NCBI GenBank assembly: GCA_944385815.1
Contig: CALWYQ010000156.1
Coordinates: 20,737-84,736 of the forward strand
Direction: 5' to 3'
DNA from: an uncultured Oscillospiraceae bacterium
GTDB taxonomy: Bacteria > Bacillota > Clostridia > Oscillospirales > Oscillospiraceae
Length of the DNA stretch: 64,000 nt
The notes below the pieces were generated by a model. It saw nothing but the letters and a program-made list of their open reading frames with translations, made no database searches and was not told where the DNA came from. The position numbers and the translations under genes were made by a program. Positions 41,783-58,095 of this stretch are shown here, piece by piece; within the stretch, counting starts at the first letter, position 1; each line of letters starts with the position of its first letter.

Positions 41783-42127
41783 TTAGAAATTGCCGCCGTT
41801 CCAGCCCCAATGTGTGATGGGCTCATAGACGACATAGAGGCGGTCGGGAGGGACGCCGAGGCGCTCGCTCATCGACGCGCAGAGCTCGCGCGTGAGCATG
41901 TCGTACTGCGCGCCCTCCAACTCGCCGAAGGTTTTGAGGACTATCATCGCGGCGGGGGTCTCGCCGTCGCCGGCAAAGCTCATGTCCGCGCCGTCCTCGA
42001 GGTGTACCATGACCCAGCTCTCGCTCTTGCCGGGGATGAGCTCGATTATGCGGGCGAGCTCGTGCCGCAGCGCGGGGCGCTTTTCCACGGGTATGCGGGT
42101 GCTGGTCTGAACTTCAAAGTAGGGCAT
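41783..42127 (-). CDS. MIF/phenylpyruvate-tautomerase-family protein (Pro-1 tautomerase superfamily)
   Basis: It is 114 aa and begins MPYFEVQTS (Pro directly after the initiator Met). The length and pattern are typical of MIF-like tautomerases. Confidence 0.6.
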   Translation of the reverse strand: MPYFEVQTSTRIPVEKRPALRHELARIIELIPGKSESWVMVHLEDGADMSFAGDGETPAAMIVLKTFGELEGAQYDMLTRELCASMSERLGVPPDRLYVVYEPITHWGWNGGNF

Positions 42128-42142
42128 AATTTCTCCTTTCGG

Positions 42143-43399
42143 TTACTTGCGCCTGGAGAGCGGACGGTAGATGAAGGCCAGTATGAGGCCTACAACAGCG
42201 AAGGCCATGGAGACAAGGAAGGCGGGGCGGTAGCTGCCCGTTCCGTTGAACATTGCCTGCATGAGCATGGGGCCGATAATGCCGCCGGCGGAGAAGCCGA
42301 TGAACATTATGCCGTAGTTCAGCGAGCTGTACTTCACGCCGAACTGGTCGCTGGTGAAGCCGGGGTAGACGCCCATGAACGCGCCGTAGCAGAGGCCTAT
42401 CATGCAGATGCCGATGCAGAACATGACGGCGCTTTTGTTGCCGCCGCTGAGATAGAGCAGCGTGAGCGCGGCAATCGCGAGCACAAAGGCGGCGATGAGC
42501 GTGTTGATGCGGCCTATGCGGTCGGATATCCAGCCGCAGATTATGCGCCCGCCGGTATTGAAGAGCGCGAGGGCGCTGACGACAAGGGCGGCGGTGCCGG
42601 TGCTCATGCCTATCATGGTCTGCGCCACGCTCGAGGCCTCGGATATGGTCATAAGGCCGAGAGTGCAGCCGACGGTGAGCATGATGAGCATGACGTAGAA
42701 TACGCCGCTCGAGAGCATCTGCTTTGCGTTCTTATCCTCGACGCGGCTGACCTCGCCTGTGAGCTCGGGAGGAGTCCAGCCCGTGGGCACAAAGTCGTCC
42801 GGGCAGGTGGTTATCAGCAGCGAGCAGAGCACCGCCAGCACGACGATGATCACGCCGAAGATGATAAAGGCGAGACAGACGCCGAAGGCTTCGTTGAACA
42901 CGTTGGCAATGGGCGGGATGATTACGCTGCTTATGCCGAAGGAGGCGGTGGAAATGCCGCCCGCGAGGCCCTTTTTGTCGGGGAAGAACTTTACCGCGGT
43001 GCTGATGGTGCAGACATAGGCGAAGCCGTTGCCGAGGCCGCACATCAGGCTGAAGCCGACGATAAGGATGAACACGTTGGTGGCAAGGCCGCTGACGATA
43101 AAGCCGAGGCCGAATACCAGCGTGCCGATGAGTATGACCTTGCGCGAGCCTATTTTGTTGTCGAACCAGCCGCCGCTTATCGTTGTGATAAAGGCGTCGC
43201 CGTTGGCAACGGAGAAAACTATGGCAAGGTCGGCGGCGGTCATGGCCGTACCGTGCAGGCCGTTGAGGTGCTCGGCCATGGGCCCGGCGAACACGCTCCA
43301 GGCGTAAATTGCGCCTATGCAGAGGTTCGCCACGCAGCAGGCAAAGAGCACAAGCCAGCGCCGCTTTGTAAGCGCGGCGTTACGTTCCTGAATAGTCAT
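42143..43399 (-). CDS. MFS transporter (oxalate/formate antiporter-like subfamily)
   Basis: It has about 12 predicted TM helices and an OFA-like N-terminus (RRWLVLFACCVANLCIGAIYAWSVF). Confidence 0.75.
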   Translation of the reverse strand: MTIQERNAALTKRRWLVLFACCVANLCIGAIYAWSVFAGPMAEHLNGLHGTAMTAADLAIVFSVANGDAFITTISGGWFDNKIGSRKVILIGTLVFGLGFIVSGLATNVFILIVGFSLMCGLGNGFAYVCTISTAVKFFPDKKGLAGGISTASFGISSVIIPPIANVFNEAFGVCLAFIIFGVIIVVLAVLCSLLITTCPDDFVPTGWTPPELTGEVSRVEDKNAKQMLSSGVFYVMLIMLTVGCTLGLMTISEASSVAQTMIGMSTGTAALVVSALALFNTGGRIICGWISDRIGRINTLIAAFVLAIAALTLLYLSGGNKSAVMFCIGICMIGLCYGAFMGVYPGFTSDQFGVKYSSLNYGIMFIGFSAGGIIGPMLMQAMFNGTGSYRPAFLVSMAFAVVGLILAFIYRPLSRRK

Positions 43400-43402
43400 G
43401 GC

Positions 43403-44608
43403 TCATACAACACCCTCTTCCCGAAGCTTTTCGACCTCGTCGTGCCCGAGGCCGAGTATGCCGCACAGCAGGCGCTCGGTGTCCTCGCCGAGGCCGGGCG
43501 CGGCCTTGTCGGCGCGGTCGGCGCAGCCGTGCATCTTGATGGGGGTGCCGGGCATCTCTATCTCGCGGCCGAAGGCGGGGTCATAGACGTCCCAGAGCAT
43601 ATTGCGGCGGCGGATAACGTCGCACTCGCAGGCCTGCTTGATGTTCTGGATGCGGCCGAAGGGCACGCCGGCGCCGCTTATAAGCTCCTCAAGCTCATCG
43701 ACGCTGTGCTGCATCGACCAGTCCTCGATTATGCCCTTGAGGGTGGGGATGTAGTTCTCGACGCGCTTGGAGTTGTTGATAAAGCGCGGGTCCTCTATGA
43801 GCTCCGGCTTGCCCATGGCCCTGCAGAGCGCGGCCCAGAACTTGTTGGTGCCGCAGGCGAGGACAAACTGGCCGTCCCTGGCCTTGAAGGAGTCGAAGGG
43901 CGCTATAACGGGGTCGCTGTTGCCCTCGGGCTTGGAGACTATGCCCTTGATGGTGTACTGCATGACGCCGGTCTCAAGTATCGAGAAAACGGTGTCGACC
44001 ATCGAGACGTCGAGCCTGCGGCCCTCGCCGGTGCGCTCGCGCTGGTAGAGCGCCATGACGACGCCGAGGGAGAGATAGGTGCCGGAATAGTTGTCCGCAA
44101 TGGCGGGGCCAACCTTGACCATCTCGCCGCCGAGCGGGCCGGTCATGCTTATCATGCCGCCGAGCGCCTGGGCGACGACGTCATAGCAGGGCAGCTGCGA
44201 CATGGGGCCCTCGAGGCCGTAGCCGCTTATGGAGGCGTAGATGAGACGGGGGTTGATTTCGCGCAGGCTCTCATAGCCGAGGCCGAGGCGCTCCATCGTG
44301 CCGACGCGGAAGTTCTCGCAGAGGACGTCGGCGGTTTTGACCAGCTCGCGGAAGAGCTCCTTGCCGCGCTCGGTCTTGAGGTTGAGCGTCAGGCCGTACT
44401 TGTTGCGGTTGATGTAGGAGAAGTAGCCGCTGGCCTCGCCCTCCATGGGCTCCCAGCCGCGGCTCTGGTCGCCGACGCCGGGGACCTCTATCTTGATGAC
44501 CTCGGCGCCCTGGTCGGCCAGGTGCATGGTGCAGAAGGGGCCGGAATAGGCCTGGGTGAGGTCAAGTACGCGCACGCCGGTCAGCGGGCGGACAGATGCG
44601 TTGCTCAT
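43403..44608 (-). CDS. Type III (CaiB/BaiF family) CoA-transferase, copy 1
   Basis: It has PLTGVRVLDLTQAYSGPFCTMHLADQGAEVIKIE and the mid-protein GGMISMTGP loop. Confidence 0.85.
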   Translation of the reverse strand: MSNASVRPLTGVRVLDLTQAYSGPFCTMHLADQGAEVIKIEVPGVGDQSRGWEPMEGEASGYFSYINRNKYGLTLNLKTERGKELFRELVKTADVLCENFRVGTMERLGLGYESLREINPRLIYASISGYGLEGPMSQLPCYDVVAQALGGMISMTGPLGGEMVKVGPAIADNYSGTYLSLGVVMALYQRERTGEGRRLDVSMVDTVFSILETGVMQYTIKGIVSKPEGNSDPVIAPFDSFKARDGQFVLACGTNKFWAALCRAMGKPELIEDPRFINNSKRVENYIPTLKGIIEDWSMQHSVDELEELISGAGVPFGRIQNIKQACECDVIRRRNMLWDVYDPAFGREIEMPGTPIKMHGCADRADKAAPGLGEDTERLLCGILGLGHDEVEKLREEGVV

Positions 44609-44618
44609 GGTATCCTCC

Positions 44619-45002
44619 TTAATCCGCGGTGAAGGCGGTCATCGCCGCCTCCAAAAGCGCGTCGCCGGCAATATACTTGGCCTCGACAAGGACGCGCGTG
44701 GGCTTGTACTCACCGAAGAACCCGGCGTAGACCTCGTTGATGGCGTCGAAATCGTCCATGCTCTTGACATACACGTCGACGCGGGCGACGGTGGCCTTGC
44801 TGCCGCCGCACTCCTCTACAACGGCCAGCAGGTTCGTAAGGACCGTCAGCGTGGCCGCCTTTATATCGGTTATCATTTCGCCCGTGACCGCGTCCTCGGG
44901 GATCTGGCCCGAGGTCATTATCATATTCCCGCAGCGTATGCCGTGGACATAGGGGCCGACGGCGGCGGGGACTTTATCGCTGTTGAATCTTTCAAGCTTC
45001 AT
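44619..45002 (-). CDS. ridA: RidA/YjgF family reactive enamine/imine deaminase
   Basis: It is 127 aa, with AAVGPYVHG, SGQIP and ARVDV..VEA patterns. Confidence 0.82.
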   Translation of the reverse strand: MKLERFNSDKVPAAVGPYVHGIRCGNMIMTSGQIPEDAVTGEMITDIKAATLTVLTNLLAVVEECGGSKATVARVDVYVKSMDDFDAINEVYAGFFGEYKPTRVLVEAKYIAGDALLEAAMTAFTAD

Positions 45003-45020
45003 GGTATTCCTCCGTTAATT

Positions 45021-45082: not shown

Positions 45083-46150
45083 TCAGGCCCAGATGTCGCC
45101 TATGGTGAAGCCCTCCTCGAAGGGGTCGGTCGGGTCGAGGACAAGGTTGCCATAGCCGTAGATCCAGCTTTCGCCTGTGATGGTGGGGACAACGGCGTCG
45201 TAATCGCCGATCTTCGCCTTTTCAATCAGCTTGCCGGTGTAGACAACGCCGAGCAGGCCCTCGTGACGGAAGGGCTCGTCCAGCTTGAGCTCGCCCTTGG
45301 CGTACATGGCGGCCATGCGGGCGCAGGTGCCGGTGCCGCAGGGGCAGCGGTCAAGCGCGCCGATCCAGGTGGAGGGGTTGTCGAAATCGACCTCGCCGCT
45401 CGCGACGGTGACTGCGTTCTGGACGTCGGACTTCTCCGGGTGCTTGCTCGGGCCGTAGAGCTGGCTTATCGTGATGCCGACGCCGGGGTAATCCGGGTGC
45501 GCGACGGGCAGCTGGTCCTGAGCGGCGCGGAGAATGAGGGAGGAGACGCGGGTTATCTCGCGGCCCATGTCGGGCGTGAGCTCTATCCACGGGAACTGCC
45601 TGACGTCGGCCATGACATAGAACATGCCGCCCCAGGCGACGTCGACCTTGACCTTCTCAACGCCGTGGCCGATGTGCGGGACCTCGATCTCCTTGTCCAC
45701 GTACACGGCGAAGGCGGGGACGTTCTTAAAGGTGACGGCGGTGGCCTTGCCGTTTTCGCAGACGGCCTCGATGCCTATAAGGCCCGCGGGAGCTTCAAGG
45801 TTGAACTTGTTGACGCCCTCCTTCATCGGGATGATGCCGGTCTCCAGCAGGACGGTTGCGACGGAGATGACGTTGCCGCCGCTCATCATCGGGTACTCGG
45901 TCTGCTCCATTATAATGAAGCCGGCAGCCGCATCGGGATGCTTGGGGGGGACAAGGATGTTGCAGCACATCGGGGGATAGCCTCTCGGCTCGCGAAGCAG
46001 GAACTTGCGCAGGCCGTCGGCATGCAGGCGGAGGTACTCCTCCATCTCGTACACGCTGTTGCCGGGGATGTGTCCGACACCGCCGGTTACGACGCGCATC
46101 GGCTCGCCGTCGTGGGTCTCAACGACGTTGATGACTCTCTTGAAGCTCAT
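45083..46150 (-). CDS. Proline racemase superfamily enzyme with Ser90/Cys271 at the two catalytic positions
   Basis: It has ETHDGEPMRVVTGG. The first catalytic position reads MMSGGN where canonical members have MCGH. The second reads DRCPCGTGTCA (Cys retained). Confidence 0.8.
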   Translation of the reverse strand: MSFKRVINVVETHDGEPMRVVTGGVGHIPGNSVYEMEEYLRLHADGLRKFLLREPRGYPPMCCNILVPPKHPDAAAGFIIMEQTEYPMMSGGNVISVATVLLETGIIPMKEGVNKFNLEAPAGLIGIEAVCENGKATAVTFKNVPAFAVYVDKEIEVPHIGHGVEKVKVDVAWGGMFYVMADVRQFPWIELTPDMGREITRVSSLILRAAQDQLPVAHPDYPGVGITISQLYGPSKHPEKSDVQNAVTVASGEVDFDNPSTWIGALDRCPCGTGTCARMAAMYAKGELKLDEPFRHEGLLGVVYTGKLIEKAKIGDYDAVVPTITGESWIYGYGNLVLDPTDPFEEGFTIGDIWA

Positions 46151-46244: not shown

Positions 46245-47807
46245 TCAGCTTTCAACGTCAACCGGAGCTTCCAGGCAGCCCCAGTTGGGAGCGCTGTAGC
46301 ACACTTTGGAGTATTTGAACAGTACGACAAGGCACATTATCATAACTATGCTTTGCAGTACGCCGACAAGGGTGAACATGCCCTTGACGGAGTTGATTCC
46401 GCCGGTGGCGACGAGGGTGTAGCTCGTGCCGCAGAGGATGAGGCCGGTGAGGATCTTCTGGAACTTCGGGGCCTCGCTCTCGGCGTCCAGCCTGCGGCAG
46501 GAGAGGGTCGCAACGCAGGAGGCCATCGGGTCGGCGAGGGTGGAGAAGCTCATGACGATGCACAGCAGGAAGGCCACGGTGACGAACTTGCTCAGAGGCA
46601 GGGTGCCGATAATCTGGAAAACGGTGGACTGCATGCCGTAGGTCTCGAGCGCGGCCCAGACGTCAAAGGTGCCGGAGCTCTGCAGGTAGATAACCTGGCC
46701 GCCGAAGATGGCGATCCAGACCATGCAGAAGATGGAGGGGACGAGGACCTGGACCAGCATGAAGGTGCGGACGGTGCGGCCGCGGCCCATGCGGGCGAGG
46801 AACATGCCGATGACGGGCGCGTAGACGATGAAGGAGGCCCAGTACTGGATTATCCAGTCGGCGGACCAGGTCTCGCCGTCGGTGAGGACGGTGCTGCCGG
46901 TGGTCATGCGGCCGAGGTGGTCCCAGATGTAGCCGACGGCCTCGGAGCCGATCTTGCCGATGAACTCGGTGTTGCCGAACACAAGCACCCAGGCCATCAG
47001 GAAGAAGAAAAAGTACATGCAGCAGGTGGAGACGTACTTGAGGCCCTTGCTGATGCCGGTGACGCAGCTGGTGATGAACACCGCGCCGACGAACACGGCG
47101 GCAAGCAGCCAGACAAGCGCGCTCTGCGGGATGCCGAAGGCGGCTTCAATGCCGGCGCCTATCTGCATGAGGCCGACGCCCATGGAGTTTGAGGTGCCGC
47201 CCATGATGCAGAAGATGACCATGGCGGTGATGAGGGTGTTGAGCCAGCCGCGGCGCTTGCCGGTGGCGCACTCGACTATGGAGTTGAAGCTCAGGTTCTT
47301 CTTGCGGTTGACGCAGAGGACAGCGAAGGCGGCGCCGCAAAGGGCGTACATGCAGTACTGGACAAAGCTCCAGTTCCACATGGCCTGGCCGACGGCAAAG
47401 ATGCCGGCCTCGCGGCTGCCGGGGTCGGCGCCGACGAAGGCGGGGGTCTGCATGAAGTGGTACATGGGCTCGCCCATGGCCCAGAAGAGAAGGCCTGTGC
47501 CTATGCCGGAGCAGATGCTCATCGCGCACCAGGCGGGCAGGCTGTAGGCGGGCTTGGCGTCCTCGCCGCCTATCTTGATATCGCCATATTTAATGGCCAT
47601 GAAAATGACGCCGAATATCAGAAATACAAAGCTCAGGAGGTTGATGTACCAGCCGAGATAGTCGGCCATGCCATAGAGCAGCTTGGTCATGAAGTTGCCG
47701 ACGGGCTCGGTCCAGAGGGCGCCGGCTACGATGAAGAGGGCAAGTATGATTATGGCCGGCCAGAACGCGACCTTGTTCATCCGTCTATCCTCGAGAGTGT
47801 TGTTCAT
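46245..47807 (-). CDS. BCCT family (betaine/carnitine/choline-type) transporter
   Basis: It has about 12 TM helices and a Trp-rich BCCT-like segment (SADWIIQYWASFIVYAPVIGMFLARMGRGRTVR). The start is Met1 (47807) or Met10 (47780). Confidence 0.8.
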   Translation of the reverse strand: MNNTLEDRRMNKVAFWPAIIILALFIVAGALWTEPVGNFMTKLLYGMADYLGWYINLLSFVFLIFGVIFMAIKYGDIKIGGEDAKPAYSLPAWCAMSICSGIGTGLLFWAMGEPMYHFMQTPAFVGADPGSREAGIFAVGQAMWNWSFVQYCMYALCGAAFAVLCVNRKKNLSFNSIVECATGKRRGWLNTLITAMVIFCIMGGTSNSMGVGLMQIGAGIEAAFGIPQSALVWLLAAVFVGAVFITSCVTGISKGLKYVSTCCMYFFFFLMAWVLVFGNTEFIGKIGSEAVGYIWDHLGRMTTGSTVLTDGETWSADWIIQYWASFIVYAPVIGMFLARMGRGRTVRTFMLVQVLVPSIFCMVWIAIFGGQVIYLQSSGTFDVWAALETYGMQSTVFQIIGTLPLSKFVTVAFLLCIVMSFSTLADPMASCVATLSCRRLDAESEAPKFQKILTGLILCGTSYTLVATGGINSVKGMFTLVGVLQSIVMIMCLVVLFKYSKVCYSAPNWGCLEAPVDVES

Positions 47808-47848: not shown

Positions 47849-48484
47849 TCAAGAGTTAAAGAATCGCATGTTAATTTTACCGTCGAGCCACATTATAAGG
47901 TCCATGACCTTGGCGACGATAAAGCTGTAGAGCGCGGAATAGAGTATGGCCTTCCAGCTCTGCAGCGCGAGGCAGCAGAGCAGCATTATGGAGCAGTCCA
48001 TGATGAAAAGTATGCTGCCGTAGCTCAGGCGCGCAGCGCGCTTTTTTACGAGCAGCGCCAGCGCCGTGGTACCGGCCATGGTGCCGCCGGAGGCCATAAG
48101 CATTCCCGCGCCTATGCCCATCGCAGCTCCCCCAAGAGCGACGATAAGCACAGGATGCTCCGAATTGAAAAGCGGGGTCATCCACGCCCACAGATCCATG
48201 AGGGCCGAGGTGCCGGCCATGATTATTACCGTGTAGACCAGCACCTTCATGCCCTGCTTTTTGGTGACCAGGATCATCACCGGCACGTTCAATAGCAGGT
48301 TCACGGCTCCTATCGGCGTGTCCAAGAGGCTGTTTGCCGTAACCGCGAGGCCCAGCATGCTGCCCGGTATGACCTCGATCTGGTTTACATAGACCATGGA
48401 GAGAGCGTAGATCACGCAGCCGATAATAAGCAGCAACGCCTCATATATCCTGCGCGCGCTGCGCTTTTTTCCTTCGAGGGGCAT
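47849..48484 (-). CDS. YitT/YczE-like integral membrane protein
   Basis: It is a 211-aa polytopic membrane protein with a weak family resemblance only. Confidence 0.4.
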   Translation of the reverse strand: MPLEGKKRSARRIYEALLLIIGCVIYALSMVYVNQIEVIPGSMLGLAVTANSLLDTPIGAVNLLLNVPVMILVTKKQGMKVLVYTVIIMAGTSALMDLWAWMTPLFNSEHPVLIVALGGAAMGIGAGMLMASGGTMAGTTALALLVKKRAARLSYGSILFIMDCSIMLLCCLALQSWKAILYSALYSFIVAKVMDLIMWLDGKINMRFFNS

Positions 48485-48488: not shown

Positions 48489-48914
48489 TCAGAAATAGAC
48501 CTCTATCTCGTCGCGATCGGTGAAGAACTGCACCTCGCGCGCGCCCTCGAGCTTCATGTAGTCCTCCTCGCTGAGGTTGACCACGGGGATGGCGTAGTTA
48601 TAAAAGCGCTTCGCTATCAGCGGGCCGGTGAGGACGACAGGATCGCTCCTCACGTTTATAATGGCGGCCGGGGCGCAGTGGGTGCGGACCTGCTCAAGGA
48701 TGATGAGGCCGGTGCCGCTGCTGCCCTTGGGCGTCGGGAAGGCGAGGACCTTGCCGTTCATGTTCTGCTGATAGAAGGGGTGGCGCCTGTCGCGGATAAG
48801 GCCGCTCTGCGGGTCAACGGTGCCCCAGAAGCTCATCGGCTCGTTGCACCACATCAGCTCCGCGCGGACGTCGCCGGTGACGGCGTATTTGCATTTGAGC
48901 GTCAGCTTCTCCAT
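48489..48914 (-). CDS. Aconitase X swivel-domain subunit (DUF126)
   Basis: It is 141 aa with SFWGTVDPQSGLI and GKVLAFPTPKGSSGTG motifs. It overlaps the DUF521 gene by 13 nt. Confidence 0.78.
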   Translation of the reverse strand: MEKLTLKCKYAVTGDVRAELMWCNEPMSFWGTVDPQSGLIRDRRHPFYQQNMNGKVLAFPTPKGSSGTGLIILEQVRTHCAPAAIINVRSDPVVLTGPLIAKRFYNYAIPVVNLSEEDYMKLEGAREVQFFTDRDEIEVYF

Positions 48915-50763: not shown

Positions 50764-51503
50764 CAGTCCTTGCCTCCTCTGTCAACATATACGCCTACGG
50801 GGAAAACCTTTTCGTTCTCGTTCTTTATCTTGGCCATGGCCTCAACCGGGCTGAGCTTCCAGTTGGTGGGACAGGGGGAGAGCACCTCAATTATGGAGAA
50901 GCCCTTCTTCTCCATCTGGTTTTCAAAGCCCTTTTTGATGAAGCGCTTGGTCTCGTCGATGTGACGCGCGTCATAGAGCGCACCGCGGGCGGCGAAGGCC
51001 ACGTCGCAGTTGGCGATGTTCTTGAGCATGTCCACGGGGTGGCCCATGGTCTCAACCTTGCGGCCGGCCTTGCTCGAGAGGGTCTTGTCGCCGACAAGGG
51101 TGGTGGCGAGGTTGAGCTGGCCGCCGGTCATGCCGAAAATACCGTTGTTGACGACTATCATGGTTATGGGCACGTCGCGGATGGCGGCGTACATGGTCTC
51201 GGCGAGGCCGATGACATAGGAACAGCCGTCGCCGGCGTGGACGTACACGGTGGCGTCAGGGCGGACCTTCTTGATGCCGGTGGCGACGGAGGCGCAGCGC
51301 CCGTGGGGGCCGGCGATGAACTCAAAGTTCATGGCGTCCTGAGACCAGAAGCTGCAGGCGATGTCGACGCAGCCGATGACGTGGTCCTGAAGCCCTAACT
51401 CCTCTATGCTCTCGGCAATCAGGCGCTGGATGACGCCGTGGCCACAGCCGCCGCAGTAGCCGGCGGTGTTGATTATTGACTCAGGCTTACGGTAGACGGG
51501 CAT
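50763..51503 (-). CDS. 2-oxoacid:ferredoxin oxidoreductase, beta (TPP) subunit (operon 2)
   Basis: It has YCGGCGHG, GDG and NNGIFGMTGGQ. There is a 1-nt overlap with the gamma gene. Confidence 0.86.
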   Translation of the reverse strand: MPVYRKPESIINTAGYCGGCGHGVIQRLIAESIEELGLQDHVIGCVDIACSFWSQDAMNFEFIAGPHGRCASVATGIKKVRPDATVYVHAGDGCSYVIGLAETMYAAIRDVPITMIVVNNGIFGMTGGQLNLATTLVGDKTLSSKAGRKVETMGHPVDMLKNIANCDVAFAARGALYDARHIDETKRFIKKGFENQMEKKGFSIIEVLSPCPTNWKLSPVEAMAKIKNENEKVFPVGVYVDRGGKD

Positions 51504-51504: not shown

Positions 51505-52587
51505 TCAAAGCACCTCCATGGGTTTTATCTTCCCGGCTAAAATATCGCGGCAGCGGTCGATGATGCCCTCCACGGTCGGGAGCTCCTTGGAGGTCAGGCA
51601 GCCGTACAGCGGCTTTTTGAACTCGGTGGCGAGCAGGATGTCCTCGCCCATCTGCGAGGTGATGCTCATCTCCACCGTCACATAGCCCTTTACGCTCTCG
51701 GGCACGTCCTTAAAGGCCTTGCGGGGATAGGGCCAAACGGTGATAGGACGGATGAGGCCGAGCTTCATGCCCTCCTTGCGGGCCTGGCGGACGGCGCTGC
51801 GGCAGACCCTCGAGGAAATGCCGTAGGCCACAAGGACGAGCTCGGCGTCCTCGACCATGAAGGACTCCCAGCGCTGCTCGTTTTCAAACATGGCTTCGAT
51901 CTTCTCGCGCATGTACTTGTCATAGGCCTCATAGCCCATGTAGTAGCTGAGGTTGTAGGCCTTGTTCTTCCTGGCGTCCCTCGGCTTGCCGGTGAGCGTC
52001 CAGTCGAACTTGTCCATGTCGTGCTCGTGCGGCTCGGGGAGGTAGCACTTCTCAATCATCTGGCATATCGCGCCGTCGCTGAGTATCTCTACGACGTTGC
52101 GGTATTTTTCGGCGAGGTCGAAGGCCTCATAGGTGAGGTCGGCGCACTCCTGGACGGAGGCCGGCGCGAGGACAAGTATGCGCTTGTCGCCGTGGCCGCC
52201 GCCGCGGGTGGAGACCCAGTAGGAGTCCTGGCCGGCGGTTATCTCGCCGTCGCCGAGGCCGTAGCGCATGGCGTTTACGATGACGGCCGGGATGCCGGCG
52301 GCGGAGAGGTAGGATATCTCCTCCTGCTTGAGGTCAAAGCCCGGGCCGGAGGAGCTGCTCATGCAGCGCGCGCCGCAGGCCGCCGCGCCGAAAAGCATGC
52401 TCATGCTGGCGATTTCGTTCTCGCCCTGGATAAAAACGCCGCCGCGCTTTTCCATGTTGACGGACATGTACTCAAGGATCTCGCTCTGGGGAGTGATGGG
52501 GTAACCGGCATAGAAGCGGCAGCCGGCGCGCAGCGCGGCCTCGGCTATCGCCTCGTTGCCTTTCATCAGGACGTATTCAGCGCTCAT
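51505..52587 (-). CDS. 2-oxoacid:ferredoxin oxidoreductase, alpha subunit (operon 2)
   Basis: It begins MKGNEAIAEAALRAGCRFYAGYPITPQ. I chose the start at Met15 of the track ORF (ATG 52587), behind a perfect AGGAGG RBS. Confidence 0.85.
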   Translation of the reverse strand: MSAEYVLMKGNEAIAEAALRAGCRFYAGYPITPQSEILEYMSVNMEKRGGVFIQGENEIASMSMLFGAAACGARCMSSSSGPGFDLKQEEISYLSAAGIPAVIVNAMRYGLGDGEITAGQDSYWVSTRGGGHGDKRILVLAPASVQECADLTYEAFDLAEKYRNVVEILSDGAICQMIEKCYLPEPHEHDMDKFDWTLTGKPRDARKNKAYNLSYYMGYEAYDKYMREKIEAMFENEQRWESFMVEDAELVLVAYGISSRVCRSAVRQARKEGMKLGLIRPITVWPYPRKAFKDVPESVKGYVTVEMSITSQMGEDILLATEFKKPLYGCLTSKELPTVEGIIDRCRDILAGKIKPMEVL

Positions 52588-52609
52588 AACAATTCCTCCT
52601 TCTCCGGGC

Positions 52610-52807
52610 TCATTCAACAGTGAACACATAGTCCGGGCAGACCTTGTAGCATATGCCGCAGCCTATACAGAGCTCTTCGTTTACCTCGATGATCTCATAG
52701 CCCTTCTTGTTTACCACCTCAAGGGCTGTTATCGCCTTTTTGGGGCAGTTCGCCACACAGAGCCTGCAGCCCTTACACAGGTCGGTGTTCGCCTTAGCTT
52801 TAGCCAT
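52610..52807 (-). CDS. 2-oxoacid:ferredoxin oxidoreductase, delta subunit (2x[4Fe-4S]) (operon 2)
   Basis: It has two Cys clusters (CKGCRLCVANCP and CIGCGICYKVCP) in 65 aa. Confidence 0.82.
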   Translation of the reverse strand: MAKAKANTDLCKGCRLCVANCPKKAITALEVVNKKGYEIIEVNEELCIGCGICYKVCPDYVFTVE

Positions 52808-52848
52808 GTCGCTCCTCCTCGCATATCATTTATCGTGCAGAAAATCGG

Positions 52849-52950
52849 AATTGTGAAATGTGTATCATTAATACTAAAACTACATTTCACAATTTCACTT
52901 AATATATTAAACCTGACGGGCTGGAAAGTAAATAGTGAAATTACATTTCA
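52849..52950. promoter_or_regulatory. Array of GTGAAAT/ATTTCAC half-sites, candidate IclR operator region
   Basis: There is a perfect 13-bp inverted repeat: AATTGTGAAATGT (52849-52861) and ACATTTCACAATT (52882-52894). An extra ATTTCAC lies at 52892-52898, and a compact palindrome GTGAAATTACATTTCA lies at 52936-52950. Confidence 0.5.
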
Positions 52951-53049
52951 GAATAAGCGCCAGCGTTTCACCATTGCTTTTGTATAATTTGGTGTGTAAA
53001 GGCCACAAAAACTGAAACGCAAATTTCGTTTTTTTCGTTGCCGCGGCTC

Positions 53050-53078
53050 TTGACACTCTTAGCTTCGGAATGTATGAT
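53050..53078 (+). promoter_or_regulatory. Sigma-A-type promoter for the IclR gene
   Basis: TTGACA (53050-53055), a 17-nt spacer, then TATGAT (53073-53078). Confidence 0.55.
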
Positions 53079-53114
53079 ATTTGAAGTCTGATATATAAAT
53101 AATAGAGGTGCAAT

Positions 53115-53879
53115 ATGGCGGAAAAGGCGGAGTCCCTTCAGGTTGTTGAAAGGACCTTCAAGGTCCTCGAGCTTATAGCGGCGAACAGGAAAATGCGGCT
53201 CAACGACATATATTCGGCGACGGGCATAAACAAGGCCTCGCTGCTGAGGATACTTGCGAGCCTTTGCGAATGCGGGTATCTCAACCGCTCGGAGCGGGAC
53301 GGGGAGTATTCGCTCACCTTCAAGGCCTTTGAGGTCGGCGTAAAGGCGGTGCGCACGAGCGAGATTGACTATGTCATCCGCAACACGCTCGAGCAGCTCT
53401 CCAGGGAGCACAACGTGGTGGCGCAGTTTTCCGTTGAGGACCACGACGAGCTGCTATGCCTTCAGAGCTATGACGAGAACAGCACCGGCTACACGGTATA
53501 CACCCGTGTCGGCCAGCGTATGCCGATGTACACCTCGAGCGCGGGCAAGGCCATACTGAGCACGTATTCAAACGAGCAGATACGCGAAAAGTGGAAGCGC
53601 TACGATGTCCGCCGCCTTTCGCCCAACTCCATCACCAACATAGACGCCTTCCTCAAGGAGATAGCCCGCGTGCGCGAGCGCGGCTACGCCACGGATATGG
53701 AGGAGTGCGAGCCAGGGCTCTTCTGCGTGGGCACGGTGCTGCTCAACTACAACCTCTGCCCGATAGGCGCCATCAGCCTGTCCACGAGCTCCATGACCGA
53801 GGAGCGGCGCAACGAGCTGAGCGGCGCCCTGCTTGAGCAGTGCCGCCGCCTCTCCTACATGCTCGGCTACACAAAATAA
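53115..53879 (+). CDS. IclR family transcriptional regulator
   Basis: It has an N-terminal wHTH (VVERTFKVLELIAANRKMRLNDIYSATGINKASLLRIL) and a C-terminal IclR effector-domain pattern. It is transcribed divergently from the catabolic operon. Confidence 0.85.
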   Translation: MAEKAESLQVVERTFKVLELIAANRKMRLNDIYSATGINKASLLRILASLCECGYLNRSERDGEYSLTFKAFEVGVKAVRTSEIDYVIRNTLEQLSREHNVVAQFSVEDHDELLCLQSYDENSTGYTVYTRVGQRMPMYTSSAGKAILSTYSNEQIREKWKRYDVRRLSPNSITNIDAFLKEIARVRERGYATDMEECEPGLFCVGTVLLNYNLCPIGAISLSTSSMTEERRNELSGALLEQCRRLSYMLGYTK

Positions 53880-53880
53880 A

Positions 53881-53961: not shown

Positions 53962-55077
53962 TCAGTCAACGACATATTTTGCCGCGACGCCCTTGAGTAT
54001 GGCCTCGGCGTCGTTAGTGATGCGCTCGGCAAGCTCCGCGCAGGTGGGCAGGTCGGTTATGCGCTGGGCGCACTCGCCGGCGCCGGCTATGGCGTGCTCG
54101 GCGTCGCCCTTCTCGCAGGCGGCGACGCATTCGCGGGCGTAGAGCAGCAGGTCCATGGGTATGGTGCTGTAGTCGTCCGGTACGCCGACATAGGAGCCGG
54201 GGGCGAGGCGGGCGGTGTCATAGGCGTGCTTGAGCGAGTTCGCGTTGCGCAGCAGGCGGGCGGGGCCGACAAAGCCGCGCGCGACGAGGGTGCCGCCGTC
54301 CTGGCAGTCTACGACCATCTGCTTCCAGAGCTTGGAGAAGTCGCTCTCCTGCGTCGCGAGGAAGCGCGTGCCCATCTGGACGCCGTCGGCGCCCATGGCG
54401 AAGGCGGCCGCGAGGCTCTTGCCGTCGCAGAAGCCGCCGGTACCGACCACAAGCGTGTTTTCGTCGGAGAACTTCTCAACGATGTCCGGCAGGAGGGTCA
54501 TGGAGTGCACGGGCTGCCAGGCGGTGTGCATGCCGCCCTCATGGCCGGAGGCGATCAGGACCTTGACGCCGGCCTTCTTGCAGCGGCGGGCCGCCCTGAC
54601 GCTCGGGAATACGTGCATCCAGATCATGCCCTGTTCCTCGACGTACTTGCCCCAGGGCATGGGGTCGCCGGCGGAGGTAACAAGGACCTTGAAACGCTCG
54701 CGCATCTCGGGGCTCTCGGCGCGCAGCTCGGCTATGGCCTGGGTGACCATGCGGGCGTTTTCGAGGACCTCGGTGGAGACCATGACGTTGGCACCGAAGA
54801 TGCCCTGGGACTCCTTCGTCTCTTCAAAGACGCGGCGGAACATCTTCTTGGTGATGGTGACCGGGTCGTCGTCCACGCTGGCGTGGGCCTCTTCGCAGAA
54901 GCGCTCGTAGACTATGGGCTCGGCTTCCTTGGACTGGACGCCGTAGGTGCTGCAGAGCCCGAGGCAGCCGGCGTTTGCCGCCGCTATGCACAGGCTGGTG
55001 ACCGGGTAGGGGCCCATACCGGCCTGGATCAGGGGGTACTTCAGGCCTACAAGCTCGGTAAGACGGGTTTTGATCAT
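53962..55077 (-). CDS. NMO-family FMN oxidoreductase (nitronate monooxygenase / FabK-like fold)
   Basis: It has LKYPLIQAGMG near the N-terminus and a GGFCDG..GADGVQMGTRF motif. Confidence 0.75.
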   Translation of the reverse strand: MIKTRLTELVGLKYPLIQAGMGPYPVTSLCIAAANAGCLGLCSTYGVQSKEAEPIVYERFCEEAHASVDDDPVTITKKMFRRVFEETKESQGIFGANVMVSTEVLENARMVTQAIAELRAESPEMRERFKVLVTSAGDPMPWGKYVEEQGMIWMHVFPSVRAARRCKKAGVKVLIASGHEGGMHTAWQPVHSMTLLPDIVEKFSDENTLVVGTGGFCDGKSLAAAFAMGADGVQMGTRFLATQESDFSKLWKQMVVDCQDGGTLVARGFVGPARLLRNANSLKHAYDTARLAPGSYVGVPDDYSTIPMDLLLYARECVAACEKGDAEHAIAGAGECAQRITDLPTCAELAERITNDAEAILKGVAAKYVVD

Positions 55078-55131
55078 CTGTTACACTCCTTTTCGTTGAA
55101 ATAAATTGATGACTTCTTCAGCCGCAGGGGC

Positions 55132-56532
55132 TCAGCAGAGGCCGAGGCCCTGCCAGACGGGGACGCTGCCGAGCAGCGCGATGAGCACGGCGCCCATGTA
55201 GAATATGGAGGCCTTGCGGGCAAGCTTCATATCCACAAACTTGCCGCCGGTCATGCGCACAAAGCCCGCAACGGAGGGGTTCATGTAGGCCTCGTTCCAG
55301 AACATGGTCGCCATGTAGCAGGTAAAGACAAAGACGAACATGCTTATACCGCTGCCCGGGATAAGCGGGCTGAACACGCCGGTGAGCACGGTGAGGCAGC
55401 AGGTCTGGGAAACGATGACGTACCTGAGCACGAAGGTGAGCAGGCAGACGCTGACGACAAAGATGTAGGGGTTGGAGAGCATCGGCGCGCAGATGGGGCC
55501 GAGCCAGGAGGCTATCCAGTCGCCGCAGCCGGTGGAGGTCATAAAGTTCGCGATGCTCAGCACGCCGCCGATGAAGAGCACGAGGGTCCACTGGCCCTTG
55601 GCGTTCGCGTCGGGGCTGCTGATGAGGCCGCAGCAGACAAAGGCCGCGTCCGCGATGAGCGCCACCATGCCGGCGTCAACGCCGTGAAGGTCCTGGGTTA
55701 TCCAGGCGATAAGCGCGCAGCAGACGATTGCGACGCCCTGCTTTTCCTTGGTGGACATGGGGCCGAGGGCCTTGTACTGCTCCTTGAGGAAGCTCACGTC
55801 GCCGGAAACCTCGCCCTTGGGCGCGCAGTAGACGGCGCAGAAGAGGTAGATGAGGACAATGAGGATTACGTACCAGAGCCAGGTCGCGGCCAGCCAGCCG
55901 CCCCAGGTGAAGGTGGTGCCCATGAAGCCTATCATCAGCGCGACGAAGGCGCTGCCGGACATGAAGGCGTTGCCGAGGGTGTAGGTGCAGGCAAAGTTGG
56001 CGAACCAGATGCCGAGGGCCTGCTTGCTGAAGGGCTTTACGCCGATGACCTCGCTGACCTGCGCGGTCATCGGGGCCATGAGCGCGGTCTTGGCAAAGGC
56101 GCTCGGTATCATCGGCGTGGTGGCGAGGCCGGCCAGGAGCATGGCGGTGACCTGCGCGCGGTAGGTTCCGGGGAATTTGCAGAGCACCCAGAGGGCGATG
56201 CGCTTCATAAAGCCGCTGTTATTGATGCCGACGCTCATGACAAACACGCCTATGCACAGCCAGAGCGTGCTGCCGGAGAACTGCGCCGTGACGCTTGCGA
56301 CATTGCCGATGCCGAAGGCGCACAGCAGGCCCATCGTGGCGAGGACCGCCGCCCAGTCCGCCATGGCGCCGCTTATCAGCGCCACAAGCATAAAGGTAAA
56401 GCAGCCGAGATACTGCCAGGCCTGGCGGCTCATAAGCTCCGTGACGGGCGGGACAAAGCCGATGACCAGCATCAATACGATGCCGAGGACTATGGCGACT
56501 ATCGTTTTTACAGTTTTCTTCTCAATGGCCAT
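55132..56532 (-). CDS. Anion permease, DASS/SLC13-like (ArsB/NhaD superfamily)
   Basis: It is a 466-aa polytopic protein whose pattern resembles di/tricarboxylate:cation symporters. Confidence 0.6.
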   Translation of the reverse strand: MAIEKKTVKTIVAIVLGIVLMLVIGFVPPVTELMSRQAWQYLGCFTFMLVALISGAMADWAAVLATMGLLCAFGIGNVASVTAQFSGSTLWLCIGVFVMSVGINNSGFMKRIALWVLCKFPGTYRAQVTAMLLAGLATTPMIPSAFAKTALMAPMTAQVSEVIGVKPFSKQALGIWFANFACTYTLGNAFMSGSAFVALMIGFMGTTFTWGGWLAATWLWYVILIVLIYLFCAVYCAPKGEVSGDVSFLKEQYKALGPMSTKEKQGVAIVCCALIAWITQDLHGVDAGMVALIADAAFVCCGLISSPDANAKGQWTLVLFIGGVLSIANFMTSTGCGDWIASWLGPICAPMLSNPYIFVVSVCLLTFVLRYVIVSQTCCLTVLTGVFSPLIPGSGISMFVFVFTCYMATMFWNEAYMNPSVAGFVRMTGGKFVDMKLARKASIFYMGAVLIALLGSVPVWQGLGLC

Positions 56533-56701
56533 TACACACCATCCTTTACATATTTGCTGCTCAGGACGCGCCCCACCCGCGTCCGCGCGCCGGAAAACTC
56601 AAACGCCTGTCTCTAAATTAACGCAATTATATGCGAAATTCACCAACAAATATGGCGAAAATGTCCGGTATTTTGACGCCTGTTTAAGTGCAGTTTATCC
56701 C

Positions 56702-56730
56702 TTGCAATAGATTTGACCAACAGTTATACT
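56702..56730 (+). promoter_or_regulatory. Sigma-A-type promoter for CoA-transferase copy 2
   Basis: TTGCAA (56702-56707), a 17-nt spacer, then TATACT (56725-56730). It is followed by a leader of about 175 nt. Confidence 0.5.
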
Positions 56731-56907
56731 TTTAACACAGCCTGTTCTTTACGCCTGATGCGGCAGGAGCGCATCTGAACGGGCGGCGGTCAGGCGGGCG
56801 GCACATATGGACGCCGGCGGGTTTTCCCCACAAACGTTTTTCGCCGGGCAAACAGGAGAGGCGGCCGCCGGACCGCAGGAATTTATAATTCAGAAGGAGG
56901 AAATTAC

Positions 56908-58095
56908 ATGGAAAGACCCTTAGACGGAATCTTTGTAGTTGAGCTTACTACCTATTGGGCGGGCCCCGCCGCCGGCGAATGGATGAGCCAGCTCGGCGCG
57001 CGCGTGGTAAAGGTCGAGCACGGCAAGGGCGACTCCACCCGCGTTTTCGGCCGTACCTGCGGGATGCCCATAACCGACGACGAGAACCCGTCGTACGATA
57101 TGTTCAACGGCGGCAAGGAGTCCCTACACATCGAGCTCAAGGACCCCGAGCAGATGAAGATAATGCACAACATGCTCGCCAAGGCCGACGTTTTCCTCAC
57201 GAGTATGCGCACCGGCGGCCTCAAGAAGTACGGCCTTGACTACGACAGCCTCAAGGACAAGTACCCCCGCCTTGTCATGGGGCACGCCACCGCCTACGGC
57301 AGCCAGGACGGCCCGATGTCCGACCTGCCCGGCCTCGACGCCGTGGCCTTCTTCGCCATGAACGGCATCCTGAGCGACCTGCGCATGGATCAGACCTCTC
57401 CTCCTATCTGCCCCCCGACCGGCATGGGCGACACCAGCTCCGGCATGGCCCTGTTCGGCGGCATAATGGCCGCCCTCTTCCGCCGCGAGCGCACCGGCAA
57501 GGGCGACTACGTCGCGGGCTCCCTCTACGGCACCGGCCACTGGGTTACCGGGGCCATCAGCGCCGGCACGCAGTACTTTAACCCCTGGCCGCGCAACCGC
57601 TTCACCCAGAGCCCGATGGGCCAGGCCTTTGAAACCAGCGACGGTAAGTGGGTGCAGATATTCAGCAACGAATATGACCGCTACTTCCCCGTGTTCTGCA
57701 AGGCCTTCGGCGTCGAGGAATTCATCGACGACCCCATGCTCAACTCGAGGGCCAACATAAACAAGAACAACTTCGAGGGCTGCCGCAAGATAGTCGAGCG
57801 CTGCATCGTCGAGGGCAAGAAGCGCACCGCCGAGGAAATCATGAGCGTCCTGCGCGCGGGCAACGTCCCCTGCCAGGCCCTGCGCGGCATAGGCGACAAG
57901 TATATCGAGCAGGAGCAGATCGACCAGTGCCTCGCCAACGGCTACAACGGCGTCATCTCCTACAAGAGCTGCGAGAAGTATTACCAGCCGCAGATGCCGC
58001 TCTACTTCGAGAGCGTCGGCGTCAACAACTACGCCCAGCACAGCAGGCCCATGGGCGCGGACAACGAAGCCCTTTTCAAGGAATTCGGCGAATAA
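56908..58095 (+). CDS. Type III (CaiB/BaiF family) CoA-transferase, copy 2
   Basis: It has PLDGIFVVELTTYWAGPAAGEWMSQLGARVVKVE. An AGGAGG RBS lies 8 nt upstream of the ATG. Confidence 0.85.
   Translation: MERPLDGIFVVELTTYWAGPAAGEWMSQLGARVVKVEHGKGDSTRVFGRTCGMPITDDENPSYDMFNGGKESLHIELKDPEQMKIMHNMLAKADVFLTSMRTGGLKKYGLDYDSLKDKYPRLVMGHATAYGSQDGPMSDLPGLDAVAFFAMNGILSDLRMDQTSPPICPPTGMGDTSSGMALFGGIMAALFRRERTGKGDYVAGSLYGTGHWVTGAISAGTQYFNPWPRNRFTQSPMGQAFETSDGKWVQIFSNEYDRYFPVFCKAFGVEEFIDDPMLNSRANINKNNFEGCRKIVERCIVEGKKRTAEEIMSVLRAGNVPCQALRGIGDKYIEQEQIDQCLANGYNGVISYKSCEKYYQPQMPLYFESVGVNNYAQHSRPMGADNEALFKEFGE

Follow-up and report, generated by a model that had tools for sequence, protein, structure and literature searches.

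Does a gut Oscillospiraceae operon oxidise 3-hydroxyproline-type imino acids? A candidate ferredoxin-linked route through Δ1-pyrroline-2-carboxylate

Collagen and plants supply the gut with hydroxyprolines, which count among its major nitrogen-rich substrates. The known routes by which anaerobes break them down all depend on glycyl radical enzymes, and their end product is either proline or alanine together with acetyl-CoA. A 64-kb window of DNA from a gut Oscillospiraceae bacterium (the whole stretch that was analysed, 64,000 nucleotides (nt) with approximately 63% G+C) contains an operon that raises the question of another outcome. Next to an IclR-family regulator, it encodes an aconitase-X (AcnX), a proline-racemase-family enzyme and a four-subunit 2-oxoacid:ferredoxin oxidoreductase (OFOR). 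In what follows, gene functions are established at the level of the family and the pathway chemistry is inferred from them. The answer proposed, to which about an even chance is given, is that this IclR-controlled operon would ferment a cyclic imino acid of the 3-hydroxyproline type through an oxidative, ferredoxin-linked branch and not through reduction to proline.

Thirteen minus-strand open reading frames (ORFs) run in one direction from position 52807 down to 41783, and the preliminary description of this DNA, which had reported such a run together with the gene families in it, was borne out by ORF coordinates and by Pfam and NCBIfam domain scans. At the 12 junctions, neighbouring genes overlap by up to 20 nt or lie up to 94 nt apart; ten junctions do not exceed 60 nt, as had been said of most. 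The first four genes encode a complete OFOR in one operon: a 65-residue delta subunit resembling a 2x[4Fe-4S] ferredoxin (52610–52807, minus strand like all the operon genes; Pfam Fer4 families), the alpha subunit (51505–52629; POR_N and PFOR_II), the thiamine pyrophosphate-binding beta subunit (50763–51503; TPP_enzyme_C) and the gamma subunit (50227–50763; Pfam POR, E = 1.8e-41). Metagenome gene calls give alpha a start that makes a protein of 360 residues, and the gap after delta is then 22 nt.

The alpha subunit passes the cut-off of the NCBIfam VorB subfamily (404.7 against 399), none of the pyruvate-, 2-oxoglutarate- and indolepyruvate-specific NCBIfam equivalogs is reached, and beta matches several models of 2-oxoacid ferredoxin oxidoreductase beta subunits, all under their cut-offs. 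The window has a second four-subunit OFOR operon (33006–36357, minus strand), 15 kb from that of the cluster, which runs in the order 241-residue protein without a Pfam match, 72-residue ferredoxin, alpha, beta and gamma, and is presumably the housekeeping enzyme. The cluster alpha subunit is 41% identical to its paralogue there (34333–35412), and the subunits overall are 38–45% identical. That the cluster OFOR is a dedicated paralogue is supported by this comparison and by the company that it keeps in other genomes, where its delta subunit is conserved at 62–97% identity across clusters of the OFOR type.

This company was inspected from both ends. For one, 54 genomic loci that encode AcnX relatives were fetched (L numbers denote these and further loci), every window protein was scored against each of them, and the neighbouring ORFs were clustered all against all, the many spurious antisense-ORF families of high-GC loci being filtered out by hand. 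For the other, a reverse test, metagenome contigs were searched with the OFOR alpha subunit and the neighbours inspected. Where alpha is at least 72% identical and the contig reaches past the OFOR, all 11 contigs carry AcnX, with the exception of one variant; at approximately 50% identity the link is gone. The variant, present on four near-identical human-gut contigs (L087–L090), is arranged as IclR / OFOR-RidA-BCCT-ProR-CoAT-MFS-ProR (ProR, proline-racemase-family gene; CoAT, CoA-transferase gene): it has no AcnX, and two racemase-family copies replace it. On the contigs examined, this clade of OFOR was found only with AcnX or racemase-family genes, in the same operon and under one IclR regulator; the tie between the OFOR and genes for hydroxyproline-type dehydratases proves to be tight and reciprocal. 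Since non-homologous enzymes, AcnX or the racemase-family protein, stand upstream of the same OFOR, and since Δ1-pyrroline-2-carboxylate (Pyr2C) is the sole product common to their characterised relatives, the pattern points to Pyr2C as a shared product that would feed the OFOR. The AcnX-less variant is the strongest single argument for this central step.

Many contigs from gut metagenomes carry the identical cluster, and the closest genomes are Oscillospiraceae metagenome-assembled genomes (MAGs; Candidatus Limivicinus and ‘Oscillibacter’) with approximately 90% AcnX identity. A recurrent core made up of IclR, OFOR delta-alpha-beta-gamma, the large and small AcnX subunits and a BCCT transporter, almost fixed in its gene order, is found in Oscillospiraceae, Enterocloster aldenensis, E. 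hominis, Ruminococcus turbiniformis, Peptoniphilus faecalis, a Eubacteriaceae MAG and other Clostridia, which supports the thirteen-gene operon as one conserved functional unit. The terminal enzyme varies. Seven loci have a CoA-transferase, seven have an NDP-forming (ADP-forming) acyl-CoA synthetase (ACD, a protein of approximately 696 residues), and never are both present. Anaerobes that oxidise amino acids classically conserve energy with the pair OFOR plus ACD; this pairing, together with the swap, argues that the acyl-CoA made by the cluster OFOR is a pathway intermediate, and it fits a logic that leads from 2-oxoacid to acyl-CoA to acid.

If Pyr2C were reduced to proline, a reductase would be expected, and the family of known Pyr2C reductases is that of ornithine cyclodeaminase (OCD)/mu-crystallin (PMC4113996), beside the Ldh2/Mdh2 type. 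The preliminary description had seen no candidate for one, and this stands: tblastn found no OCD homologue in the 64-kb window, where the Ldh2/Mdh2 type was not specifically searched for beyond the cluster genes, and domain scans found neither type in any of the latter. A different arrangement would make the OFOR a co-regulated, general 2-oxoglutarate or branched-chain enzyme providing ATP and reduced ferredoxin, with the reduction of Pyr2C to proline taking place elsewhere in a Stickland-like balance. With this would agree the fact that alpha passes only the broad VorB model, the order delta-alpha-beta-gamma, which is that of the OorDABC-type 2-oxoglutarate enzymes, the resemblance of the CoA-transferase to succinyl-CoA-using enzymes and the presence, in L066, of an OCD-family gene as well as the OFOR. 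Nevertheless, the genome already has the other, only distantly similar OFOR, the cluster's own clade is confined to operons with AcnX or racemase-family genes, no cluster enzyme would generate 2-oxoglutarate or a branched-chain 2-oxoacid, and the window lacks the OCD-type reductase, with the limit on the search just given. This arrangement is considered very unlikely.

Under the oxidative reading, the operon would work as follows. Uptake would proceed through a specialised BCCT transporter that lacks the classical tryptophan box for trimethylammonium groups. Water would then be removed by beta-elimination, from the cis isomer by a split AcnX with three cysteine ligands, and from the trans isomer or epimer by the Ser/Cys racemase-family enzyme, and both dehydratases would yield Δ2- and then Δ1-pyrroline-2-carboxylate. 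A MIF tautomerase with its catalytic Pro1 would speed the enamine-to-imine shift, and RidA the hydrolysis of the imine, in which the ring opens to 5-amino-2-oxopentanoate. The OFOR would decarboxylate this 2-oxoacid oxidatively to 4-aminobutanoyl-CoA, CO2 and reduced ferredoxin, after which a class-III CoA-transferase would move the CoA onto another acid and release 4-aminobutyrate (GABA); in the sister clusters with ACD, the synthetase would make ATP directly as GABA is released. GABA might leave through the MFS or YitT proteins, or by exchange on the BCCT transporter. The general sequence (dehydratase, 2-imino/oxo acid, dedicated OFOR, acyl-CoA, CoA-transferase or ACD) is well supported as a prediction from comparisons between genomes, and Pyr2C as its node is the best-supported reading. 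Thus the route that had been drawn earlier from Pyr2C through the OFOR to an acyl-CoA keeps its architecture, by virtue of the dedicated OFOR, the ACD swap and the AcnX-less variant, and needs amendment as to where the island ends and what kind of AcnX it contains.

The AcnX genes, large (catalytic) subunit (48902–50167; Pfam AcnX, PF04412, E = 7.8e-116) and small (swivel) subunit (48489–48914; AcnX_swivel_put, PF01989), overlap by 13 nt and represent the split, two-subunit form. The window enzyme was aligned with the structures of the Agrobacterium enzyme AtAcnX (7cnp and 7d2r) and its residues were interpreted with the published analysis (PMC8184944). In AtAcnX numbering it keeps the catalytic base Ser70 as well as the contacts to the carboxylate and C3 hydroxyl, Glu292, Ser293, Asn294, Lys530 and Tyr534, and these residues correspond to the Ser of GSS, E136, S137, N138, K382 and Y386 in the window and are invariant across the clade. 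Of the four residues specific to cis-3-hydroxy-L-proline (C3LHyp), namely Trp35, Thr72, Asp203 and Ile206 (PMC8184944), Trp35 and Asp203 are kept, Ile206 is Val, and Thr72 aligns with a Gly, with a Thr one position further on (GSSGTG). The swivel motif reads GSSG(T/A)G in this clade, GSCTGS in type I (AtAcnX) and GSSSGS in IIa-like proteins. As for the Fe-S cluster, the ligands are Cys273, Cys508 and Cys510 in type I and two Cys in type IIa (PMC8184944). In the window enzyme, C273 and C508 are kept, S449 is Cys and C510 is Leu; the aerobic IIa-like loci (L049, L051–L057) have Ser or Ala at position 449.

This three-Cys pattern, like that of archaeal type IIb, and the Gly in place of Thr72 overturn the earlier assignment to type IIa. 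Type IIb itself is not indicated either: the phosphate-pocket and non-polar positions Leu27, Val64, Ala47 and Ser50 of the mevalonate-5-phosphate dehydratase TkAcnX are Trp, Gly, Asp and Val here, and the common ground is the three-Cys ligand set only. The NCBIfam model for C3LHyp dehydratase (NF051439, cut-off 700) scores the large subunit at 308 bits and the small one at 97.5. By its residues, the window AcnX corresponds to a three-Cys subclass among those left without a functional assignment (PMC8184944); its cluster is predicted to be of the [4Fe-4S] type, in an enzyme of the oxygen-sensitive kind.

Relatives of this AcnX are also found outside clusters of the OFOR type. Same-clade proteins that are approximately 57% identical adjoin OCD-family genes in Desulfocicer vacuolatum (L064), in an Oscillospiraceae MAG and in a Eubacteriaceae MAG (L066); such genes were found in relatives L064, L065 and L066, the last of which also has a full OFOR cluster. 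In a third context, BCCT and AcnX stand with a DHDPS-family gene (L029–L033, L042 and L044–L046, over about 8–14 kb in each locus), accompanied by an iron-dependent alcohol dehydrogenase (Fe-ADH) in Clostridia, Pseudovibrio and Polycladidibacter and by a 497-residue amidohydrolase in Vibrio. Trp35 is kept only in the OFOR-type clusters and is Val or Phe in the DHDPS- and OCD-linked relatives, which suggests that the substrate in the DHDPS-linked loci, though related, is not the same; it might be a 3-hydroxyproline substituted at C4, from which Δ1-pyrroline-4-hydroxy-2-carboxylate (Pyr4H2C) would form.

One may ask whether the OFOR-type clusters, too, act on some other beta-hydroxy alpha-amino or imino acid, such as 3,4-dihydroxyproline, 3-hydroxypipecolate or 5-hydroxyectoine, which AcnX would convert to a 2-oxo or 2-imino acid for the OFOR and the CoA-transferase. 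The AcnX subclass is uncharacterised, the Pseudomonas AcnX slowly dehydrates 3,4-dihydroxyproline to 4-hydroxy-Pyr2C, and the DHDPS family, paired with AcnX and BCCT in Vibrio, Pseudovibrio, Polycladidibacter and some Clostridia with Fe-ADH or an amidohydrolase alongside, includes the Pyr4H2C deaminase; Trp35 has changed in those loci, and their marine hosts suggest an osmolyte-like substrate. On the other hand, the OFOR-type clusters keep Trp35 and Val/Ile206, which in AtAcnX pack on the unsubstituted C4–C5 of the ring. Moreover, their partner enzyme belongs to the proline-racemase family, whose characterised members all act on proline or hydroxyprolines, OCD-family genes adjoin AcnX in three relatives, and the cluster has no ectoine-type hydrolase or deacetylase. 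Such a substrate is quite improbable for the window operon. Hydroxyectoine, prompted by the marine hosts and the Vibrio amidohydrolase, is kept within it as a minor candidate.

The second candidate dehydratase of the proposed 3-hydroxyproline route is the proline-racemase-family enzyme (45083–46150; Pfam Pro_racemase, E = 5.6e-98). Its Ser/Cys dyad (MSGGN ... DRCPCGTG), noted earlier, was confirmed, and none of the NCBIfam equivalog cut-offs is reached: the T3LHypDht model for trans-3-hydroxyproline dehydratase gives 296 against 550, and the 4HypE equivalog models for the epimerases also remain under theirs. Among characterised enzymes, the Ser/Cys dyad marks 4-hydroxyproline 2-epimerases, which epimerise 3-hydroxyproline promiscuously, and the dehydratases have Ser/Thr or Cys/Thr (PMC4113996). 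The window protein has Cys and not Thr as its second residue, and its dyad and S-G-x-N motif are those of a hydroxyproline 2-epimerase such as B9JQV3. The position of the nitrogen-coordinating His or Ser of solved structures is occupied by Gly (MSGGN against MCGH or MSGSN, from a loop alignment). The earlier note was right on family and dyad, and the dehydratase role that it proposed comes from genomic context alone, the precedent of the dyad being 2-epimerisation.

That context is wide. The MSGGN subfamily is conserved at 68–92% identity across phyla. An Enterococcus homologue (83% identical) is paired with an OCD/mu-crystallin gene, the classical layout of dehydratase plus Pyr2C reductase, and a Klebsiella homologue (70%) adjoins genes for POR-gamma, ferredoxin, ACD and RidA; together with the AcnX-less variant, these contexts favour the production of Pyr2C by the racemase-family enzyme, which possibly also epimerises. 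The Klebsiella huaxiensis locus (L101, 2859–8053) shows no OFOR alpha or beta gene in an 8-kb stretch that ends at the contig end, and may be an incomplete or differently arranged version of the pathway in a facultative anaerobe. A Paraburkholderia homologue (68%) lies beside a Rieske-type oxygenase/reductase pair and an OpuA-type transporter (OpuAC). The racemase-family gene is in two frame-shifted pieces in Bengtsoniella intestinalis (L027/L061, 13352–14415) and in Ruminococcus turbiniformis (L021, 18631–19556), as either a pseudogene or an assembly error.

The Gly at the nitrogen-coordinating position brings in the matter of N-methylation, to which the transporter is also relevant. The BCCT protein is encoded at 46245–47807 (Pfam BCCT, PF02028). 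In BetP, the box that binds the trimethylammonium group is formed by W189, W194 and Y197 of transmembrane helix (TM) 4 and W373, W374 and W377 of TM8. The window transporter has QYWASFIVY in TM8 where BetP has FYWAWWISW, which equals W373S, W374F and W377Y, and in TM4 it has the change W194Y; this variant motif is kept in all of the AcnX-linked BCCT proteins (30 loci, Vibrio included). The motif argues against a classical betaine, though not against a secondary or tertiary amine, and the protein is presumed to take up the substrate or to exchange it for a product. Eight loci (L007, L008, L010, L014–L017 and L019) have a second, more divergent BCCT paralogue, (E/Q)WT.FFQAFCLTYT in TM8, in which even more of the box is lost.

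Glycyl radical enzymes stand beside AcnX in Desulfocicer (L064, 208–2619) and in an Oscillospiraceae MAG (L036, 87–2462 and 17822–20200). They score 1031–1181 bits to 8ID1 and 8IOF, that is, to HpyG and HpzG, the dehydratases of the L- and D-forms of N-methyl-cis-4-hydroxyproline (PMC13450708); an identification as HypD was rejected (582–591 bits against an NCBIfam cut-off of 1100). In L064, the glycyl radical enzyme, an OpuA-type ABC transporter, AcnX and the OCD-family gene form one co-directional run. Accompanying those of L036 are genes for P5C reductase, an OCD-family protein and two MSGGN racemase-family members, as well as symporters of the BCCT, SSF and Na/Ala types.

It has to be considered, then, that the same enzyme logic serves an N-methylated 3-hydroxyproline, imported directly or derived from hydroxyproline betaine. 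The iminium formed from it would be readily hydrolysed to 5-(methylamino)-2-oxopentanoate, and from this the OFOR would produce 4-(methylamino)butanoyl-CoA, with less risk of wasteful chemistry than on the free-amine route. To the BCCT family, which carries N-methylated amines, are added the Gly found throughout the clade at the ring N-H contact (Thr72 in AtAcnX, Ser in the aerobic IIa-like proteins), the second Gly where the racemase family coordinates the prolyl nitrogen with His or Ser, the HpyG/HpzG-like neighbours, the OpuA-type transporter of the Desulfocicer operon, and the Rieske-type pair and OpuAC of Paraburkholderia. Both Gly substitutions, however, are read from loop alignments, the box for quaternary amines is degenerate in the window transporter, and genes for a methyltransferase or a demethylase are missing from the cluster. 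N-methyl-3-hydroxyprolines count as minor natural products, and in Enterococcus the homologue has an OCD-family partner gene, the arrangement of the classical trans-3-hydroxy-L-proline pathway. An N-methylated substrate is regarded as unlikely, yet as a rival to be taken seriously. Trimethyllysine or 3-hydroxy-trimethyllysine leading to δ-valerobetaine, a reading raised by BCCT plus OFOR, was rejected in view of the degenerate box and the proline-racemase-like partner.

For the free 3-hydroxyproline route, two small enzymes would act between dehydration and ring opening. The last operon gene (41783–42127; Pfam MIF, PF01187) encodes a MIF-type tautomerase whose sequence begins MPYFEV, with the catalytic Pro1 present. 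In its place, Peptoniphilus, the Eubacteriaceae MAG and a Lachnospiraceae MAG (L063, L066 and L020) have short tautomerases of the 4-OT type that begin MP. Because MIF and 4-OT proteins replace each other although they are not orthologous, a genuine need for tautomerase activity is indicated, most simply for the Δ2-to-Δ1 enamine/imine shift. The RidA-type enamine/imine deaminase (44619–45002; Pfam Ribonuc_L-PSP) scores 104 with TIGR00004 against a cut-off of 106 and is present in about half of the OFOR-type clusters; an Arg lies in its PTR motif, at the putative place of the archetypal carboxylate-binding Arg.

The class-III (CaiB/BaiF) CoA-transferase (43403–44608; Pfam CoA_transf_3, E = 1e-125) is presumed to take CoA from the OFOR product. 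Its closest solved relatives are YfdE, SUGCT and formyl-CoA transferase, and its best NCBIfam matches are the succinyl-CoA:mesaconate and CoA:oxalate transferases, both under cut-off. A carnitine/gamma-butyrobetaine pathway of the CaiT/CaiB kind was discarded: CaiB gives only 128 bits against 320–330 for the oxalate and mesaconate enzymes, the tryptophan box is missing, and the dehydration of carnitine gives no 2-oxoacid. The MFS gene (42143–43399) had been described as a transporter of the OFA type. An MFS transporter it is, yet of a different type, since it passes the NCBIfam SfMCT L-lactate model (400.5 bits, cut-off 320) and its score with the oxalate/formate family is under the cut-off; it has an orthologue in L026 (68% identical) and could serve to export the product or to bring in the CoA acceptor. 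The YitT-family membrane protein (47849–48484; Pfam YitT_membrane), whose genes recur in several sister clusters, is a possible exporter.

Several observations weigh against the proposal that free 3-hydroxyproline is carried through Pyr2C to GABA. Pyr2C is mainly cyclic in solution, and 4-aminobutanoyl-CoA is prone to lactamise to 2-pyrrolidone, by which the thioester is wasted. The transporter's family typically carries N-methylated amines, dicarboxylates are the substrates of the CoA-transferase's nearest characterised relatives, and the Ser/Cys dyad is a mark of epimerases and not of dehydratases among characterised enzymes. The AcnX falls in an uncharacterised subclass with a IIb-like Cys set, has Gly for the N-contacting Thr72 and remains far under the NF051439 cut-off, and the pairing of other members of its clade with DHDPS-family and Fe-ADH genes is left unexplained by Pyr2C. 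Finally, cis-3-hydroxy-L-proline has no known abundant natural source (PMC8184944), which is at odds with AcnX being the most conserved gene of the cluster.

The full scheme is given somewhat less than an even chance. Under it, 3-hydroxyproline, free or N-methylated, would be dehydrated by the new AcnX subclass or by the MSGGN dehydratase, and an omega-amino-2-oxoacid OFOR would then lead to GABA or N-methyl-GABA, CO2, reduced ferredoxin and ATP in anaerobes of gut and sediment. In a looser sense, the operon is read as a variant of known hydroxyproline catabolism, whether the substrate is free or N-methylated and whichever its stereoisomer, and it can be compared with several described systems. 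With the bacterial cis-3-hydroxy-L-proline pathway (AcnX of type I or IIa, LhpI, plus Pyr2C reductase; PMC5144071, PMC8184944), the cluster shares the two-subunit AcnX with its catalytic Ser, the binding residues for the carboxylate and the C3 hydroxyl, Trp35 and Asp203, and with aerobic L-hydroxyproline clusters in general an adjacent racemase-family gene. It differs in its IIb-like ligands (Cys273/Cys449/Cys508), in the Gly for Thr72, in having OFOR plus CoA-transferase (ACD in the sisters) where the Pyr2C reductase stood, and in its host, a strict anaerobe. Compared with the described racemase-family enzymes (PMC4113996), the window protein is full-length and has the same first catalytic Ser and positioning Asn (S-G-x-N); it departs from them in the Ser/Cys dyad, the Gly at the N-coordinating position and the coupling to an OFOR instead of a reductase.

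The energy-conserving half resembles the pairs of OFOR and acyl-CoA synthetase (ACS) of Thermococcales (POR, VOR, IOR and KGOR) and of the oxidative Stickland branch, where a four-subunit OFOR followed by ACD (here in the sisters; a CoA-transferase in the window) takes a 2-oxoacid to acyl-CoA and reduced ferredoxin, and then to acid and ATP. Unlike those pairs, the proposed source of the 2-oxoacid is a dehydratase and not a transaminase or dehydrogenase, and the OFOR would act on an omega-amino 2-oxoacid that equilibrates with a cyclic imine; no description of an OFOR specific for such a compound was found. The glycyl-radical hydroxyproline pathways (HypD, HplG, HpyG and HpzG; PMC13450708) share the niche of gut and sediment anaerobes, and HpyG/HpzG-like enzymes, together with P5C reductase and members of this racemase-family subfamily, are found next to the AcnX relatives. 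The window has no glycyl radical enzyme, and the proposed route would rely on a polar C2–C3 beta-elimination from a 3-hydroxy compound as against radical chemistry at C4–C5, with a product that is oxidised and not reduced. Full-text searches, outside whose coverage most subscription journals lie, found no report linking AcnX or 3-hydroxyproline dehydratases to an OFOR, or Pyr2C to 4-aminobutanoyl-CoA, and the earlier statement that no pathway with this combination of enzymes had been described agrees with that result.

If the scheme is correct, hydroxyproline would have a new fermentative fate, in which a polar dehydratase is linked with a dedicated ferredoxin oxidoreductase and a step that yields ATP. 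It would also define a new class of OFOR substrate, an amino-oxoacid in equilibrium with a cyclic imine, and provide the first functional assignment for an orphan subclass of type-II AcnX. In addition, GABA or something closely analogous could plausibly come from a microbial source not known before, abundant commensals such as Oscillospiraceae and Enterocloster, in which hydroxyprolines of collagen or plant origin would be turned directly into a neuroactive amine.

The operon diverges from the IclR-family regulator gene (53115–53879, plus strand; HTH_IclR and IclR_C) across a control region of 307 nt with 36% G+C (52808–53114), which contains (T/A)GTGAAAT / ATTTCAC half-sites. The AT-rich character and the repeated half-sites that had been described for it hold good (TGAAAT/C repeats, 52849–53025). 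This spacer includes a perfect 13-nt inverted repeat, and 5 of the 28 matches to TGTGAAAT in the whole window, with at most one mismatch, fall in 52852–52952; a near-consensus promoter-like site for iclR lies at 53050–53078 (11 of 12 positions). An IclR orthologue of 41–82% identity flanks the OFOR genes in most sister clusters. In 23 non-redundant orthologous IclR–OFOR spacers from different taxa, the AcnX-less variant included, TGAAA[CT] half-sites number 118, compared with 15.3 +/- 4.1 after shuffling. This enrichment of approximately 8-fold across taxa supports a conserved, putative IclR operator of the TGAAAC type. The regulator and such an operator offer a testable regulon.

On the far side of IclR are an NMO-family flavoenzyme (53962–55077, minus strand; its best match is FabK-like, well under cut-off), a DASS permease (55132–56532, minus strand) and a second class-III CoA-transferase (56908–58095, plus strand). 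All three are present as first described, and their assignment to the island did not hold: no other AcnX or OFOR locus examined has any of them with the core, with the sole, partial exception of a distant NMO (21% identity) at one Peptoniphilus locus, and NMO–DASS is a separate unit convergent with IclR, with a hairpin (53908–53879) in between. On these grounds, and because the two CoA-transferases of the window are only 28% identical to each other, the catabolic cluster is taken to end at IclR, and the three genes beyond it to be unrelated neighbours. The same facts bear on the alternative that had been entertained earlier, a C5-dicarboxylate island of the itaconate, mesaconate or citramalate type that would include DASS, NMO and both CoA-transferases. 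The mesaconate and oxalate matches of the first CoA-transferase, even if under cut-off, and the nearby DASS permease might be cited for it, as might the ICL/phosphoenolpyruvate-mutase and PrpD-family genes that lie downstream in the Peptoniphilus locus. Apart from the lack of conservation and the convergent arrangement, however, the amine-binding Asp203 is retained in AcnX, and dicarboxylate catabolism would give neither the racemase-family gene nor the RidA gene a role, so that this alternative is disfavoured as extremely improbable.

At its other end, the operon is followed by a terminator-like hairpin (41723–41744, minus strand) with a 9-bp stem, eight of whose pairs are G-C, and a T-rich tail. 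The rest of the annotated window holds housekeeping genes (Lon, IspH-S1, PriA, RsmB, RlmN and a PASTA kinase). It also has a BlaI-like repressor (Penicillinase_R, 121 residues), followed by an unusually long BlaR1/Peptidase_M56 sensor (961 residues) at 37354–40606 on the minus strand, and a PfkB sugar kinase (40715–41656) sits between this pair and the operon. In other genomes, a PucR-type regulator, a PhzF-family isomerase and a 414-residue amidohydrolase recur near the OFOR-type clusters (L012, 1024–3302 and 12892–14136; L016, L019, L021, L035 and L085). The amidohydrolase is 82–96% identical among four loci, and one possibility is that it hydrolyses a lactam or a peptide. GABA-catabolic genes next to sister clusters were looked for as well, and the candidate ORFs of 450 and 309 residues turned out to be a PucR regulator and a protein of the PhzF family. 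Lastly, a 940-residue ORF on the plus strand (41810–44632), antisense to the MIF, MFS and CoA-transferase genes, is taken as an artefact of high G+C content.

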